IMG/VR virus record: IMGVR_UViG_2617270975_000008
DNA from: a virus
Lineage: Duplodnaviria; Heunggongvirae; Uroviricota; Caudoviricetes
Reading direction: 5' to 3' (one strand)
DNA: 21,665 nt
A model generated the notes under the pieces. The model searched no databases. It saw nothing but the letters and a program-made list of their open reading frames with translations, and was not told the origin of the DNA. This document shows positions 3,089 to 18,370 of this stretch, one piece after another (within the stretch, counting starts at the first letter, position 1; each line of letters opens with the position of its first letter). The translations under genes were made by a program, and so were the position numbers.

Positions 3089-3403
3089 ATGCATAACGAT
3101 CAACATAATTATGATTTATGCCTGCAAGCCATAAATGAGCGGGTAAAATCAGAGTGCCTCTTACTCCTCCCACAAGAACACGATGCAGTAAAATCCATTC
3201 AGGCTGAGCCGTATGGACATCTCACACCTGTGACTCTCGGCATTATCGCCAGAGCATTAACACAGCCCATGCTTATGCGTATTAAGACCAATATAAATAA
3301 CTGGTTGAATGAAGAATTAAGCTACCTTGATTGTGAGTGGGACAATCATTACGCAAAAACACAAAAAGAACGCATCTTCAGTCGATTATCCAGCAACAGA
3401 TAA
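3089..3403 (+). CDS. Hypothetical protein (104 aa), antisense to the late operon, inside the S-R insertion
   Basis: Strong SD (GAGGA, 7 nt before ATG); lower GC than backbone; no family recognised. Confidence 0.55.
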   Translation: MHNDQHNYDLCLQAINERVKSECLLLLPQEHDAVKSIQAEPYGHLTPVTLGIIARALTQPMLMRIKTNINNWLNEELSYLDCEWDNHYAKTQKERIFSRLSSNR

Positions 3404-12574: not shown

Positions 12575-12730
12575 TTACTCCTCAGGTTCGTAAGCTGTGA
12601 AGACAGCGACCTCCGTCTGGCCGGTTCGGATTCGTACCTCGCAGAGGTCTTTCCTCGTTACCAGTGCCGTCACAATGACGGTTAAACAGATGACGATCAG
12701 GGCGATTAGCATCGCCTTTTGCTGCTTCAT
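12575..12730 (-). CDS. hokD: Hok/Gef-family membrane toxin HokD (RelF), 51 aa
   Basis: Hand translation gives MKQQKAMLIALIVICLTVIVTALVTRKDLCEVRIRTGQTEVAVFTAYEPEE; below the 60-aa track cut-off; AGGAGAAG SD. Confidence 0.9.
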   Translation of the reverse strand: MKQQKAMLIALIVICLTVIVTALVTRKDLCEVRIRTGQTEVAVFTAYEPEE

Positions 12731-12801
12731 AGCCTGCTTCTCCTGTCAACGCAAAGCAGAAGTGTCACCTTCGGTGCGAAACAGAGATGTCATGCTTTGG
12801 T

Positions 12802-13089
12802 TCAGAGAATGCGTTTGACCGCCTCGCTATATACTTCCGAGCGTTCTCTTTTCCCAACAGAAATCACGAAAACGACAACTTTCTCGTCTATAACCTGGTA
12901 TACAAGGCGATAGCCTGAAGACCGGAGCTTAATCTTGTAACAATCAGGCATACCACGGAGCTTGTTTGCTTCAATCCGGGGTGACTCAAGTACTTCAACC
13001 AGCTTCTTTTTCAACTGTTCACGTACCGTCGAGCCCAGCTTTCGCCATTCCTTTAGTGCCCGCTCGTCAAAATCCAGAAAATACGCCAT
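12802..13089 (-). CDS. relE: RelE mRNA interferase toxin
   Basis: 95 aa, MAYFLDFDERALKEWRKLG...; matches K-12 RelE as recalled. Confidence 0.95.
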   Translation of the reverse strand: MAYFLDFDERALKEWRKLGSTVREQLKKKLVEVLESPRIEANKLRGMPDCYKIKLRSSGYRLVYQVIDEKVVVFVISVGKRERSEVYSEAVKRIL

Positions 13090-13328
13090 CAGAGTTCATC
13101 CAGCGTCACACGTACTGGCTTAGGATTACGAAGCCGTTCTTTCACTATCTCCACAAGTTCAGCATCTTCATCACTCAGGAGTGTCTGTTTGAACGGCAAG
13201 CGTTCATTGTCAGCGATATACTCGAGCATGAGACGAAGCGCTTCAGAAGGAGTTACACCCATTTTTTCAAGCGCGGCGTAAGAACGCGCTTTAAGTTCAT
13301 CGTCAATACGCAGGTTAATGCTACCCAT
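13089..13328 (-). CDS. relB: RelB antitoxin
   Basis: 79 aa, MGSINLRIDDELKARSYAALEKMGVTPSEALRLM...; overlaps relE start. Confidence 0.95.
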   Translation of the reverse strand: MGSINLRIDDELKARSYAALEKMGVTPSEALRLMLEYIADNERLPFKQTLLSDEDAELVEIVKERLRNPKPVRVTLDEL

Positions 13329-13340
13329 GTCTTACACCTC

Positions 13341-13364
13341 TTGTAATTACAAATGTCATTACAA
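13341..13364. promoter_or_regulatory. relBE operator-like palindromic TTGTAAT repeats upstream of relB
   Basis: ttgtaattacaa followed by atgtcattacaa, immediately upstream of the relB SD. Confidence 0.6.
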
Positions 13365-13658
13365 GTATCGCACTACAACATGCTTAGGGCAAGTCACGAA
13401 GGAAGTCAGAAAGTAGTCGTAAGAACGGTGATCACTGTCCGCTTTGTGCCAGGAGCAGCCATTGCTAAGTCCATCCTGTATTGTGCAGGTCAGCTCATTT
13501 TTAAAGAGTCCGGCCATCATCTTACTGGTACAGACACCATATACTTTGTGACGGTCAGGCTACATATGCACAACTCAACTTATTCATCTATTTTTTGCTT
13601 TAGCATGTCAGTGTTGCTTTCTCGTCGGCGGGTGAGCGGTGACCTGACCTGTCGATAA
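13353..13658 (+). CDS. YdfV-like small ORF (101 aa), possibly non-coding
   Basis: Length and position between relB and flxA match recalled K-12 ydfV; overlaps the relBE regulatory region; no clear RBS. Confidence 0.25.
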   Translation: MSLQVSHYNMLRASHEGSQKVVVRTVITVRFVPGAAIAKSILYCAGQLIFKESGHHLTGTDTIYFVTVRLHMHNSTYSSIFCFSMSVLLSRRRVSGDLTCR

Positions 13659-13810
13659 AGGAACGTAGCACGTTTTATGCAACACCCGCATGCGGCAGAA
13701 AATTATTGCCGAACGTTTACCCCTGTCAACAAGCTTTACTTTCTGAGGCGCGCCAGCCCGCTAGGAAAACAATCTGAACATCAAACAATTAATGACACAA
13801 GAAATACGAT

Positions 13811-13837
13811 TAAAGATTTTTTTGTGCATGCCGATAG
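13811..13837 (+). promoter_or_regulatory. Sigma-28 (FliA) promoter of flxA: TAAAGATT, 11 nt, GCCGATAG
   Basis: Close match to the TAAAGTTT-N11-GCCGATAA consensus. Confidence 0.75.
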
Positions 13838-13860
13838 TGCTTTTTTAAAAGGAGAAATCT

Positions 13861-14193
13861 ATGTCTGTCACAATTCAGGGAAATACCTCAACCGTTATTT
13901 CAAACAACTCCGCCCCGGAAGGAACATCAGAAATAGCCAAAATCACAAGACAAATTCAGGTGCTGACTGAAAAGCTTGGGAAAATCTCATCGGAAGAGGG
14001 GATGACGACACAGCAGAAAAAAGAAATGGCTGCATTGGTACAGAAGCAAATTGAAAGCCTCAGGGCTCAACTGGAGCAGTTGTTAAGGCAGCAGGCAGAG
14101 AAAAAGAATGAAGACGCGACAGTTCAGCCTGATAAAAAAGAAGAGAAAAAAGACGATACAAATACCGCTGGCACCATTGATATTTACGTCTAA
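13861..14193 (+). CDS. flxA: FlxA (FliA-regulated protein), coiled-coil-rich
   Basis: 110 aa, MSVTIQGNTSTVISNNSAPEG...; GGAGAAATCT SD. Confidence 0.85.
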   Translation: MSVTIQGNTSTVISNNSAPEGTSEIAKITRQIQVLTEKLGKISSEEGMTTQQKKEMAALVQKQIESLRAQLEQLLRQQAEKKNEDATVQPDKKEEKKDDTNTAGTIDIYV

Positions 14194-14207
14194 GTGACAG
14201 CCGTATT

Positions 14208-14230
14208 GTGGCCCTCATCGGGCCACTTTT
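14208..14230 (+). terminator. Intrinsic terminator after flxA (gtggccc tcatc gggccac tttt)
   Basis: Perfect 7-bp GC-rich stem plus T-run. Confidence 0.75.
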
Positions 14231-14280
14231 CGCCATCAGCCTTTTCTTTAAAGACATATTATCTTTGTATCATTTCTGAT

Positions 14281-16157
14281 AGTTAACATTACAAGATATA
14301 AGTAATGGACGCACTCCCAATTAGTCTATTTAAATCGCCACGAGTTTAACTGACAACCCATGATCAATTATGAATTGCAACTATTTCTGTAGTCACTTTT
14401 GTGGGGACAGTCCACAAAACTGCCAACTTCCGCTTCTTGCTCTTAGCGGACATTAGCATAGGCTATTTACCATAACGCCTCATTACGCGCACCGCCCAGA
14501 CTGACTCAGCGCGTTTCTGGCATATCCCCAGTAAAACAAGTAACAAACCACCCGAAAATGAACACCAGAAACGCGACTTAAGAATCTACCCTATGAATGG
14601 ATATGCACTCAACCGAATCGATCTTGGTTTCAATCTTTTTTATCGGGATCAGGCTTCTTTTTAGGTAACTTCGGGGGCTTAACTTGCTGATGACTTTGCG
14701 TTCGGCGCGTAAGCCAGGGATGGTCAGCTTTAGGTTTAACATAGTATTTTGAGCGTAAATCAATACGGGCATTATCCACTCGTTCATGGACACTCTTTTC
14801 ATCATCCAGTGGTATAGGCTCCGGGCCATCAACATACTTTTCCCAGCCCAGCGCTTTCCCGTCATACAGAACGTTAATTTCACCGTCAAAGTTCTCGCAT
14901 ACAGTAACAACCGAATGCCTAAGTCGATATCCCCGGCTCTCACTGCGTACCTGAAACGCACTGCTTTTGTACTGGAAAGTGAGATTTTTAGACAGAACGC
15001 GCTTCGCCTGTAGGCTGAAGATATAACCCAGTTCCTCTTCAGAATGGTGCACATCAAGATGAGCATTATCAGTAGTACGAGGCGACGTAGCGAACCGGTT
15101 GTTATAGGCTTCAATAAAGGTCGGCAACCATGCATTTGCTGTTTCAATATCACTGATATTCTGAAGCCGCATTTCTTTGACCAGCCTGTCCTGTAGTGTC
15201 TGATTGGCGCGCTCTACCCGCCCTTTTGCCTGCGGGCTGTTGGCATGGATTGGCTCGATGCCCAGTGTCTTTATCGCACGAGTGAACTGGGTCAGCTCAC
15301 CTTCCCGCTCTGGGTTATTTACCCTGAATATACTGTGTCTATCAGAGTAGAGAGCGAGCGGTACGCCATGATCATTAAGGTAACCCCGGAGGGTTTCCAT
15401 GTAAGCCCGGGTTGTTTCAGCAGGCACAAAACGCAACGCCATCAACGCACTGGTGGCATCATCAATGAAAACGATCAGTGTACATCTGGGGCCTCGATTT
15501 TCAAACCAGTCATGAGGTGAGCCATCAATCTGGATCAGTTCACCGTAAGATGGTCGTCGCATGCGGCGTTGATATATACGGGCAATTTTACGGCGGCGTT
15601 CACGCCATAACCCCTCTTCTATCATCCACTTTCTGAGAGTTTCAACGGATAAAGATAAACCGTGTATCTCGCGCAATTTTTCGCACGCAAACGTAGGTCC
15701 AAAATCAGCGTAACGGCCTTTGAGGAGTGAAATTACTGTTGCTCTGAATTCAGTAGAAAAGGAATTATTAGGACGCTTTCCACGTCGGTGGGAAACCAGA
15801 CCAGAAGGCCCTTCATTTCTATACCGTTGCACCAGACGTTTAACCTGCCGAATAGAAATGCCAATGCGTGCCGCAGCTTGTTCCTGAGTAATATGTCGAT
15901 TAATTGACTCCTGAATAATCTGAAGTCGGTGGAGTTCCTTATGACTCATCGTAACAGTCTCTTTGATCATGAAAAATCCCCCAGAGAATTGTCTGGGGAC
16001 ATTTTAGAATGGTTCAAAGGGGACATTACAGCTTGGTGTTAACACATAGCCTGCTTCTCCTTGCCTTTCGGCACGTAAGAGGCTAACCTACGTGTGTAGA
16101 GCATAGATATGGCCTCAGATTAATGTTAAGCGTCTTGCCGGACGCGTAATGTTAACT
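14281..16157 (-). mobile_element. Candidate insertion sequence carrying a single DDE (rve-type) transposase; 12-bp inverted repeats AGTTAACATTAC; family uncertain (IS481-like architecture)
   Basis: Exact 12-bp inverted match at 14281-14292 and 16146-16157 flanking the transposase; extra TAATGTTAA and TGGGGACA subterminal copies; no target-site duplication found. Confidence 0.45.
14630..15970 (-). CDS. DDE transposase (N-terminal HTH, rve integrase core; IS481-like)
   Basis: 446 aa; HTH ITQEQAAARIGISIRQVKRL; DDE triad candidates in IQIDGSPHDWF, LYSDRHSIF, KGRVERANQTLQ; basic C-tail. Confidence 0.8.
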   Translation of the reverse strand: MIKETVTMSHKELHRLQIIQESINRHITQEQAAARIGISIRQVKRLVQRYRNEGPSGLVSHRRGKRPNNSFSTEFRATVISLLKGRYADFGPTFACEKLREIHGLSLSVETLRKWMIEEGLWRERRRKIARIYQRRMRRPSYGELIQIDGSPHDWFENRGPRCTLIVFIDDATSALMALRFVPAETTRAYMETLRGYLNDHGVPLALYSDRHSIFRVNNPEREGELTQFTRAIKTLGIEPIHANSPQAKGRVERANQTLQDRLVKEMRLQNISDIETANAWLPTFIEAYNNRFATSPRTTDNAHLDVHHSEEELGYIFSLQAKRVLSKNLTFQYKSSAFQVRSESRGYRLRHSVVTVCENFDGEINVLYDGKALGWEKYVDGPEPIPLDDEKSVHERVDNARIDLRSKYYVKPKADHPWLTRRTQSHQQVKPPKLPKKKPDPDKKD

Positions 16158-16258
16158 GGGGCTTTTCTCTATCTGCCTTTTGGTGTTCATGCCTGAGACA
16201 GATAGCCTCAAGCACCCGCTGCAATTCTACTTAACTCTCCTTTTCCCGCAAACCGTTT

Positions 16259-16342
16259 TTATCCCCAGCGGCAAATCGAATACACCACCAGCGCCACCGC
16301 CATCGCAATTCCTACCGTTGTTAATGCTTCAGGCCAGCTCAT
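16259..16342 (-). CDS. Candidate 27-aa hydrophobic peptide (MSWPEALTTVGIAMAVALVVYSICRWG) coupled to the DUF551 gene stop
   Basis: AGGAGG 8 nt upstream of an ATG that overlaps the upstream TGA (ATGA); single predicted TM-like segment; below ORF cut-off. Confidence 0.3.
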   Translation of the reverse strand: MSWPEALTTVGIAMAVALVVYSICRWG

Positions 16343-17241
16343 TGATTCACCTCCTGCGGCGGTTCTGGTAGCGGCATCCAGTGTGACGGTTTCCACGACG
16401 CACCAGGAATTATCCACCCATCATTAGCGTCAGGATGCCCGGGGATGTAAGTAGCCCATTTCATTCGCCAGTCACCTTTCCTGTCAAACTCCACGGCAAC
16501 AAGAACGGCTGTTTTGGTATTCGGCATTCGCTCACTACAGCTTATCCAACCATCCGGAGTTGCCGGAGAGTTGCCCGATAGTGCATTCTGCTCCAGTGAT
16601 GCTTTTACAAACCACGCTGCCTGAACTATAACGCCATGAATCCAGCGCAAATCAGCATCGCGATCTTTCTTTTTCATCTTTTCGCCACTTAAGGCCTTGC
16701 TTATGTGGCTGCGTACCAGGTCTTCATGTAATTCCTTCGCCTCCTCAATGGTGAAACCACCAGGCAGAAGAGCCGGAGTTACCGGAGAGCTGGTTGACGC
16801 TTCCGGGATTTCCCGAAAATTATTGGTTGACGAATTCTTGCTTTCCCGAAAGTTTCCGGACTGAAGCATGGCGGTGCGGCAGGCGTTCCATATTTCGGCA
16901 GCAATATCGCGCTCGCTATCGGTTAATTTGTACGTGGAAACATAGCCAGAGAGCATTTCTACGTTTTCCGGAGTTGCTTCTTCCGGCACTACCGGCGCTG
17001 GCGGGGCGATGCGTCCAAGCAACTTATTTACCTCTTTCGCCATCGCGTCATATTTATCTAAATGGCGATTAGCTTCTAAGCAGACTCGGCGCATCTGATC
17101 TGAGTTAACTCGTTTAACTGGATCTGCTTCCAGCGATGCCAGCGCAATCCGTGCCAGTTCCATTTGTTCACCACGGGTAAGCCCGTTTTCAAGCGGATTT
17201 TTAATGAACAATTCAATACGTTCTTTGGTAATAGTGGTCAT
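16339..17241 (-). CDS. Prophage protein with C-terminal DUF551-like domain
   Basis: 300 aa; AAGGAG SD; C-terminal region (WISCSERMP...WMPLPEPP) resembles DUF551 as recalled. Confidence 0.55.
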   Translation of the reverse strand: MTTITKERIELFIKNPLENGLTRGEQMELARIALASLEADPVKRVNSDQMRRVCLEANRHLDKYDAMAKEVNKLLGRIAPPAPVVPEEATPENVEMLSGYVSTYKLTDSERDIAAEIWNACRTAMLQSGNFRESKNSSTNNFREIPEASTSSPVTPALLPGGFTIEEAKELHEDLVRSHISKALSGEKMKKKDRDADLRWIHGVIVQAAWFVKASLEQNALSGNSPATPDGWISCSERMPNTKTAVLVAVEFDRKGDWRMKWATYIPGHPDANDGWIIPGASWKPSHWMPLPEPPQEVNQ

Positions 17242-17516: not shown

Positions 17517-18008
17517 TCACTCTCCTTTGATGCGAATGCCAGTGGTACTCATTCTCCTGATTTCCCAGAGCACACGAGGAACACCACCGTTTCCGACCGG
17601 ATCGCGTTTACTCCGCAGGGCGACGCTTGATTCCGCCCAGCTTTTTCTTGGAGGAAGCTCTTTCACACGAACAAAACCAGCTGCGCGGAGAGATGCTCCT
17701 GATTCATCTGCCTGGGTGTACGTAATACAACGTTGATAACCCATAGCCTTTGCTGCCCGCCAGACAGCACCATAAAGCGCGCTGTTAGCGTTGCGTTCTC
17801 CTGTGGTACATGTGCGATTTACTTCAAGCGTTAATCCATCGTCCAAATGTCGTGCAACAGGTCTACCGGCTGTCGCCACACCTATCAATTCTCCGGCATC
17901 ATTTCTCAGACCAATGCTGAATTTATGCCCCACCGGGGGTTTATTGTGTCGGTGATGTCTGGATATAAACGCCTTCGCAACACGAAGAGTAACCGGTGAA
18001 ATTTGCAT
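17517..18008 (-). CDS. Hypothetical phage protein (164 aa from MQISP start)
   Basis: The ATG at 18008 has an AAGGAG SD; the 176-aa track ORF start lies inside the upstream gene. Confidence 0.6.
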   Translation of the reverse strand: MQISPVTLRVAKAFISRHHRHNKPPVGHKFSIGLRNDAGELIGVATAGRPVARHLDDGLTLEVNRTCTTGERNANSALYGAVWRAAKAMGYQRCITYTQADESGASLRAAGFVRVKELPPRKSWAESSVALRSKRDPVGNGGVPRVLWEIRRMSTTGIRIKGE

Positions 18009-18010
18009 TC

Positions 18011-18370
18011 TCACTCTCCTTTGATGCCAATGTTTACAGACTGGCAAGCCTCTTTGAGCACCCAGTCAACAGCGTCTTTCCATGCTCCGGTTTCGACTGG
18101 CGGATTCTCACGCTTTACCTGTTCATAGAAACGCACTGCTTTAATCAATCCTTCTGGTGTCAGTGGCACAGGCGGGGCAGTGAATAACGCCTGAATTTCA
18201 TAGTTCGGTCTGTCGTTGCAATCCTCTTTTGTCGGTACATATTTCCAGTCACCAACCCACTGCTTCCCCTGAAAGTCTGTAACGCCTTTTTTCACGTAGC
18301 GATATCGCCATGCCACTGGTTTTGCCTGCCCTGCCTTTTCATGCCCTTCCTGATAATTAATCTCGCTCAT
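18011..18370 (-). CDS. Hypothetical phage protein (119 aa)
   Basis: ORF; ends with the same IKGE-stop junction as the next gene. Confidence 0.6.
   Translation of the reverse strand: MSEINYQEGHEKAGQAKPVAWRYRYVKKGVTDFQGKQWVGDWKYVPTKEDCNDRPNYEIQALFTAPPVPLTPEGLIKAVRFYEQVKRENPPVETGAWKDAVDWVLKEACQSVNIGIKGE

Follow-up and report, generated by a model that had tools for sequence, protein, structure and literature searches.

Several small single-helix proteins of E. coli, among them MgrB, AcrZ, MgtS, KdpF and CydX, bind larger membrane proteins and tune their activity. The type I toxins Hok, TisB, ShoB, DinQ and IbsC depolarise or permeabilise the inner membrane. Phages encode membrane proteins of their own, such as T4 Imm, P22 SieA and HK97 gp15, that block superinfection. 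Here we describe a 27-codon open reading frame (ORF) on the minus strand of a 21,665-nucleotide viral sequence (IMG/VR record IMGVR_UViG_2617270975_000008; this whole stretch is called the window). A sequence-only reading had proposed it as a candidate single-transmembrane peptide coupled in translation to a DUF551 gene, of a kind that may serve as a membrane toxin or regulator. Comparison among its relatives makes it very probable that the frame is a genuine, conserved gene whose product is a tiny membrane protein with a single helix.

The features of the locus are collected in Table 1. The small ORF runs from an ATG at 16342–16340 to a TAA at 16261–16259, and the TG of its ATG is shared with the TGA stop codon (16341–16339) of the upstream gene. 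Both the hydrophobic 27-residue frame and the ATGA overlap are therefore present as first described. The perfect AGGAGG reported at 8 nt from the start is also present, but the spacer is 7 nt. Residues 6–24 have a mean Kyte-Doolittle hydrophobicity of 2.16 and a summed Hessa energy of approximately 0 kcal/mol (the family median is −0.22), and they are flanked by Trp3-Pro4-Glu5 on one side and Arg25-Trp26-Gly27 on the other. With 27 residues and one predicted transmembrane helix, the peptide falls within the class of small membrane proteins (50 residues or fewer, one predicted helix). Inspection led us to reject a lipoprotein signal, since a basic N-region is lacking and cysteine occurs only at residue 24. 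Taken from this single sequence, these features are within chance. Shuffled versions of the window are expected to contain the arrangement AGGAGG-N5-10-ATG 0.92 times, and 63 of 100 shuffles have it at least once; the window itself has it once. In addition, 69 mechanically called ORFs of at least 20 residues lie within the 4 kb around the small ORF. It is the comparative data that raise the ORF above chance.

Table 1. Features of the small-ORF locus and the neighbouring hok region (window coordinates).
Feature	Position	Strand	Basis or remark
27-codon small ORF with TAA stop, MSWPEALTTVGIAMAVALVVYSICRWG	16259..16342	minus	read directly from sequence
Shine-Dalgarno AGGAGG	16350..16355	minus	within last codons (Q-E-V) of upstream gene; 7-nt spacer to ATG
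ATGA start/stop overlap of small-ORF ATG with DUF551 TGA	16339..16342	minus	read directly
Predicted single transmembrane helix, ALTTVGIAMAVALVVYSIC, codons 6-24	16271..16327	minus	hydrophobicity
Upstream 300-aa gene, Ead/Ea22-like N-terminus and C-terminal DUF551 domain	16339..17241	minus	Pfam match
Inferred hok promoter TTGCGG, 16 nt, TAGAAT	16224..16251	minus	starts 8 nt past small-ORF stop
hok/sok leader (Rfam RF01794, full length)	16045..16217	minus	115.2 bits, E=7.9e-27, model positions 1-157
Transposase in 3.3-kb element	14630-15970		annotated elsewhere as IS1202-like ISEsa1 family
hokD reading frame	12575-12730	minus	

The early rightward operon of a lambdoid, Qin-like prophage makes up the minus strand of the window. 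The gene order is a DnaC/IstB-like ATPase, DUF1627, DUF977 and a string of small, tightly packed genes, followed by the DUF551 gene, the small ORF, DUF968, RusA and the Q antiterminator. The 300-residue upstream protein matches the Pfam DUF551 family (PF04448) over residues 231–296 with E=5.7e-21 (75.6 bits against a cut-off of 22). The gene is intact in the window; in E. coli PCN033 (L001 1960–2862) and several other RefSeq genomes, DNA that is 99.8% identical is annotated as three fragments or pseudogenes, a discrepancy suggestive of frameshifts or assembly errors in those records. A 176-aa ORF (17517–18047, minus strand), which lies two genes ahead of the DUF551 gene, is named 'XF1762 family protein' in PCN033; its score against the Pfam Mom family (22.7 bits, E=8.6e-5) falls short of the cut-off of 27.1.

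On the other side of the small ORF, the hok/sok leader begins 42 nt downstream of its stop codon and does not overlap it. The hexamers TTGCGG and TAGAAT in the interval are read by analogy as a putative hok promoter, in part from the 5' end of the plasmid R1 hok mRNA; they scored below the pass level in a generic promoter scan. Because the leader match starts at 16217 and the inferred promoter lies between, the small ORF is placed outside the hok mRNA. A reading in which it is part of hok/sok was rejected on these coordinates and on the copies that have no hok, since at least half of the family copies lack hok nearby. No Rfam family overlapping the small ORF was found, and a structured RNA was rejected on a fold z-score of −1.0.

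The hok locus itself is interrupted. A 3.3-kb element (12745–16044) parts the hok/sok leader from the hokD frame exactly at the hok ATG. It is flanked by a perfect 16–17-nt direct repeat at 12728–12744 and 16045–16061 (AGGAGAAGCAGGCTATG, minus strand), and imperfect inverted repeats, TGTTAACACCAAGCTGTAATGTCCCC and TGTCAACGCAAAGCAGAAGTGTCACC, form its two ends, with 19/26 positions matching by eye. Besides the transposase it carries a flxA gene, a ydfV-like ORF (assigned by position, as in K-12 Qin), relB and relE. The layout is that of relB-relE-hokD in K-12 Qin, with the 'lost' hok leader still upstream, and suggests that relBE arrived as cargo of the element. The same junction of leader and insertion element is present in 678 complete E. 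coli genomes; many E. coli genomes carry an uninterrupted allele in which hokD directly follows the leader. In the window the leader (16039–16217, minus strand) is orphaned, and a mok-like frame (MLYTRRLASYVPKGKEKQAMC) runs into the element and then stops. The Sok antisense region may still be expressed, though hokD now lies behind relBE.

A tblastn search of 50,697 phage records (E up to 10) matched 95 of them at 52–93% identity, a few of these matches being weak or spurious. Phages 933W, VT2-Sakai/Sp5, BP-4795, YYZ-2008, TH18 and Av-05 are among them. In the six records inspected (933W, BP-4795, TH18, PhiR12_1, Stx2a_WGPS2 and POCJ13) the match begins exactly where the gene before it (Ea22, EaA, DUF551 or hypothetical) has its stop codon. 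For larger collections we used the pattern ATG-NNN-TGGCCNGANGC-N55-CGNTGGGGNTRA, which leaves codons 7–24 free. In 596 Gb of species-representative genomes the pattern occurred only in E. coli and Shigella flexneri, twice each; chance matches are therefore negligible. At least 120 IMG/VR viral contigs carry it. The pattern scan of fetched loci yielded 132 copies, and later scans brought the number to 230, comprising 59 DNA alleles and 35 protein variants. All of them have 27 codons, and none has an internal stop, though codons 7–24 were unconstrained. Among complete E. coli genomes, 1641 of 5426 (~30%) contain the 84-nt ORF, at 3127 places and up to 7 times per genome. The copies are related by descent and come mostly from E. 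coli, so that these counts overstate their independence.

As far as sampled, the family is confined to phages and prophages of Escherichia and Shigella. A family HMM searched against six-frame translations found no member in K-12 Qin, Rac or CPS-53 or in lambda 20000–48502 (all E>0.2; the positive control in the window scored 1e-21, and DLP12 and e14 lie outside this comparison). That it is missing from these sequences probably accounts for the gene having escaped study. Diverged copies were seen in two prophages, MNWPEAFAITGVAMAIAFLVYVICRWG in one and MSWPEAFTTVGIAMAVALIVYSICRWG behind an eaa gene in the other. In vB_EcoM_TH18 (L005 1201–1284) a peptide with 74% identity overlaps the EaA gene through ATGA, and the same cassette is found in Av-05, 24-2-1 and 19-1-2, the four records being 77–134 kb long. 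TH18 is classified within the Vequintavirinae, which are large and virulent, and Av-05 probably belongs there too; the module thus extends beyond temperate lambdoid phages. Some alleles vary in length: in proteins P0036, P0038, P0043 and P0044, in-frame 6-nt repeat expansions in the helix (...GIAMAMAMAMAVAL...) lengthen the ORF to 31–35 residues and continue the alternating pattern of small residues. The expansion unit in protein representatives is (GCGATG)n, in frame.

To ask whether the frame is under selection, the substitution pattern was measured over codons 7–24, the part left free in the search. Column entropies at the three codon positions are 9.5, 4.8 and 17.0, and a minimum spanning tree of the alleles contains 168 substitution events, distributed 48/25/95. 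The changes thus follow the codon phase of the small ORF itself, whereas a synonymous-site pattern tracking only the DUF551 frame had been named beforehand as evidence against the gene. Synonymous codon changes make up 72 of 150 (48%) against 30% expected (binomial p=2e-6), pN/pS is 0.43 and dN/dS is ~0.33. Replacements keep to V/I/L/M/F/A, and only a few alleles place a charged residue inside the helix (D17, E20 or R11). About 3.2 stop-creating events were expected and 0 were seen (P about 0.04). A dN/dS of 0.33 is moderate constraint, and the absence of internal stops is by itself weakly significant. As read from these substitutions, selection is acting on the peptide sequence.

An unbiased sample was obtained by scanning for the neighbours only, namely the hok promoter and the start of the DUF4222 gene, which returned 174 small-ORF-like blocks. 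Intact copies account for 170 of these (123 of 124 with the DUF4222 anchor and 47 of 50 with the hok anchor), so the frame is conserved in homologous prophages also when the ORF sequence plays no part in the sampling. The four broken copies have a nonsense codon or a 1-nt indel. In the 33 alleles sampled in this way G11, A15, S22, R25 and W26 are invariant and W3, P4, A6, A17 and G27 nearly so; A17 is found in 31 of 33, and position 13 is Ala in 23 and otherwise Val. Decayed or rare copies were also seen elsewhere: Shigella phage POCJ13 (L009 1201–1281) has W3 changed to TAG together with a 3-nt deletion, and other copies have W3 changed to TGA, 1-nt indels or, in one rare allele, ATA for the ATG start. 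The broken copies look like ordinary prophage decay.

The boundaries of the conserved block coincide with those of the ORF. Homology extends from the ribosome-binding site exactly to the stop codon, and both flanks vary. The ATGA overlap is at the main ATG in 201 of 230 copies; in the remaining 29 the upstream TGA was classed as lying 3 nt earlier, and in BP-4795, the sole such copy read directly, an extra in-frame ATG restores the overlap (ATGATGA). A Shine-Dalgarno core lies 6–11 nt before the ATG in 39 of 40 distinct upstream contexts. The start overlapping the upstream stop is thus kept among relatives, as is typical of an overlapping gene pair. The upstream proteins are mosaic, with DUF551 or other C-terminal domains, yet all end in ...EVNQ/EVK/EVNR or ...EDILR. 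These tails are encoded by the Shine-Dalgarno and spacer sequence and are kept where the rest of the protein differs. The unit [GGAGG, 7–10 nt, ATG(A), 27 codons, stop] is always found on the 3' end of a mosaic 'ea'-type early gene (Ea22/Eaa/DUF551), and this cassette moves as a unit. The proposed coupling to DUF551 therefore needs to be widened: the overlap, the Shine-Dalgarno and the 27 codons are kept, but the partner is any mosaic gene of the Ea22/Eaa/DUF551 type.

These boundaries bear on the possibility that the conserved block belongs to something else, such as a plus-strand ORF at 16180..16371, the hok/sok RNA or a membrane anchor of DUF551 reached by frameshifting. In favour of these readings, 53 of 55 alleles keep the mirror antisense frame open with a dN/dS of 0.26, the hok leader adjoins the small ORF, and in the window the small-ORF frame is open for 25 codons upstream of its ATG. 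The low antisense dN/dS arises because the third codon positions of the two frames coincide. Neither end of the antisense frame is conserved: its open stretch measures anywhere from 9 to 152 codons and, in 128 of 215 copies, leaves part of the block uncovered. An antisense gene was rejected on this lack of conserved boundaries. The position of the sok match and the lack of hok in most copies speak against the RNA. In several contexts a stop in the small-ORF frame lies 1–5 codons ahead of the ATG, which leaves the ATG as the one start that the contexts have in common; a slippery heptamer is absent as well. A longer N-terminal start or a frameshift fusion to DUF551 was rejected as a general reading on the same upstream stops. 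Taken together, we regard it as very improbable that the block belongs elsewhere.

The downstream side is equally variable. The stop codon is followed after 4 nt by a DUF4222 gene adjoining xis/int in 120 copies, by the hok promoter in 53, by a module with a 34-aa membrane ORF in 23 and by other sequences, many of them terminator hairpins, in 34. Such constant placement at module boundaries could mean that the peptide is inert and that the ORF acts in cis, either as a translational bridge that carries ribosomes from the ea gene to the next module and avoids Rho polarity, or as a recombination junction conserved among mosaic phage genomes. In the commonest context the stop is only 4 nt before the ATG of the next gene (TAACCACATG), and a motif, GGTAAAAACG, is repeated around the module inserted in locus L002. 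A bridge or junction would not, however, yield the third-position excess, the conservative replacements or the invariant G11, A15, S22, R25 and W26. The length is fixed at 27 codons except for the in-frame 6-nt expansions, and in many contexts a terminator or promoter comes next, leaving nothing downstream to bridge to. We consider an inert peptide improbable.

Two other hydrophobic ORF families, of 34 and ~29 residues, recur directly upstream of hok promoters (L002 1978–2082 and several IMG/VR loci). The 34-aa ORF is annotated as hypothetical in about 1000 contigs, and the ~29-aa ORF has a GTG start and is unannotated. L002 has the 34-aa module inserted after the 27-aa ORF and before hok; the module carries a palindrome, CGATATGGGAATTCCCATATCG, and has the repeated motif on its flanks.

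A genuine gene for a 27-residue single-pass inner-membrane protein of an unnamed family is the best overall explanation of these data, and we hold it to be likely. The family is widespread, well supported and mostly unannotated. The small ORF is absent from the annotation of all five E. coli RefSeq records examined, in agreement with the suggestion of the sequence-only reading that such peptides are usually missed; at the uninterrupted allele, RefSeq lists the DUF551 gene and hokD and leaves out the ORF between them. The six phage records inspected also leave it unannotated. Database entries for E. coli 042 and PCN033 give the exact 27-aa protein the name "putative prophage protein", and at least 1000 contigs carry a 40-aa extended form from another clade, labelled "bacteriophage protein" or "hypothetical protein". 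Starts are inconsistent among the deposited members.

Profile searches place the peptide in no described family. Several alleles searched against Pfam, NCBIfam and PADLOC gave sub-threshold matches only, including a weak one to KdpF (E=0.23), and no PDB sequence matched at E up to 10. Five sequences weakly matched PHROG phrog_4612, a 57-position profile with a function-less label (E=0.0035–0.03, 15.6–18.6 bits); the alignment covers the C-terminal half of the profile, and other alleles have no match. An exhaustive HMMER search of 1.84 billion representatives with the 52-aa extended frame found no distant homologues. It returned low-complexity giants and close relatives with mis-called ends, namely extended calls of 40, 45 and 52 residues, read-through forms and the expansions to 31–35 residues. 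The peptide strings had no match in the literature searched. No match was found in the supplements of a Sakai ribosome-profiling study, where early prophage genes would be silent under the growth conditions used, and papers on exo-xis and hokW-sokW do not mention the small ORF.

How such a peptide would be made can be read from the arrangement of the genes. Ribosomes ending at the upstream TGA would re-initiate at the overlapping ATG, and the strong Shine-Dalgarno would also recruit ribosomes directly. The peptide would then be produced alongside the delayed-early phage genes, which in the window form the rightward operon from the replication genes to Q. By the positive-inside rule the N-terminus is predicted to be outside and the C-terminus inside, so that the acidic WPE motif would lie at the periplasmic and Arg25-Trp26 at the cytoplasmic interface. 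The small-residue faces G11/A15 and A13/A17 could mediate helix-helix packing, either between copies of the peptide or with a host or phage membrane protein.

The same faces could also support oligomeric bundles, and the peptide may instead be a small membrane-damaging toxin or a holin-like protein that depolarises or permeabilises the inner membrane. Its size and hydrophobicity are typical of such toxins, it often lies directly beside hok/sok, and expression from a repressed early operon would make toxicity tolerable in lysogens. The type I toxins differ in how they are controlled. The small ORF lacks both a dedicated promoter and a long folded leader; it overlaps the stop of an ordinary gene to which it is coupled, and its Shine-Dalgarno is strong and exposed. 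The sok match does not overlap it, the region has no significant RNA structure, and neither Hok_Gef nor any other toxin family is matched. The helix is followed by only three residues, and more than half of the copies lack a neighbouring hok. A toxin is, in our assessment, an unlikely identity for the peptide.

Since the small ORF lacks all the control features of the type I toxins, a role as a membrane-protein modulator or exclusion factor during infection is favoured over that of a stand-alone killer toxin. This preference, which is drawn from sequence comparison, is tentative, and we put it below an even chance. That the cassette also follows an EaA gene in virulent Vequintavirinae phages (TH18 and probably Av-05) argues for a function during infection and against one in maintaining the prophage. 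A more specific version, that the peptide is a dedicated phage factor binding a particular inner-membrane complex of the host, such as a DNA-entry or transport component or a sensor, is speculative and unlikely to be right in this form. If true, such binding would give the peptide control over superinfection, the physiology of the host or the moment of hok-assisted lysis, and phage-host interaction would have a widespread determinant that has been overlooked, present in ~30% of complete E. coli genomes and in the Stx phages 933W and Sp5. A weaker variant, a functional link to Hok, is suggested by the occurrence of three unrelated families of small membrane ORFs upstream of hok promoters. The hokW-sokW locus, a neighbour of the small ORF in Stx phages, affects phage release (PMC8621323). 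By itself the finding overturns nothing. The family adds to an under-counted class of very small membrane proteins that standard annotation misses, and it offers a clean test case for expression of a mini-protein through stop/start coupling as well as a defined candidate for knock-out and partner-finding in Stx phages.

Among known systems, the nearest in the genome is Hok/Gef (hokD, hokW-sokW). Both are small hydrophobic peptides, and they are adjacent in the window, in 933W and in many prophages. The small ORF is half the length, has neither an antisense RNA nor a mok-type leader, and occurs also without hok. Members of the Hok_Gef family (PF01848) have ~50 residues and a conserved periplasmic C-terminal part, and this profile gave no match at E up to 1 to the peptide, which has 27 residues. 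The 34-aa WP_001278454.1 (MSDDISLAMEGALAVVAVVGVYCLVVFLMDRLGN) and the ~29-aa VLVLKCALAIAAVMAIYCLAVVLMDRLSD share with it a position upstream of a hok promoter, the size class and a single helix; they belong to other sequence families, have their own Shine-Dalgarno and do not overlap an upstream stop. T4 Imm, P22 SieA and HK97 gp15 are, like the predicted product of the small ORF, phage-encoded inner-membrane proteins with non-structural roles, but they are much larger and bear no similarity to it. The closest resemblance is to MgrB, AcrZ, MgtS, KdpF and CydX, which have fewer than 50 residues, one hydrophobic helix with short polar ends, and aromatic and charged residues at the interfaces, and which are also often missed by annotation. 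There is no sequence similarity to these proteins, and the small ORF differs from them in being phage-borne and stop/start-coupled within a phage early operon. Of the systems compared, this class is the one whose way of working the peptide most probably shares.
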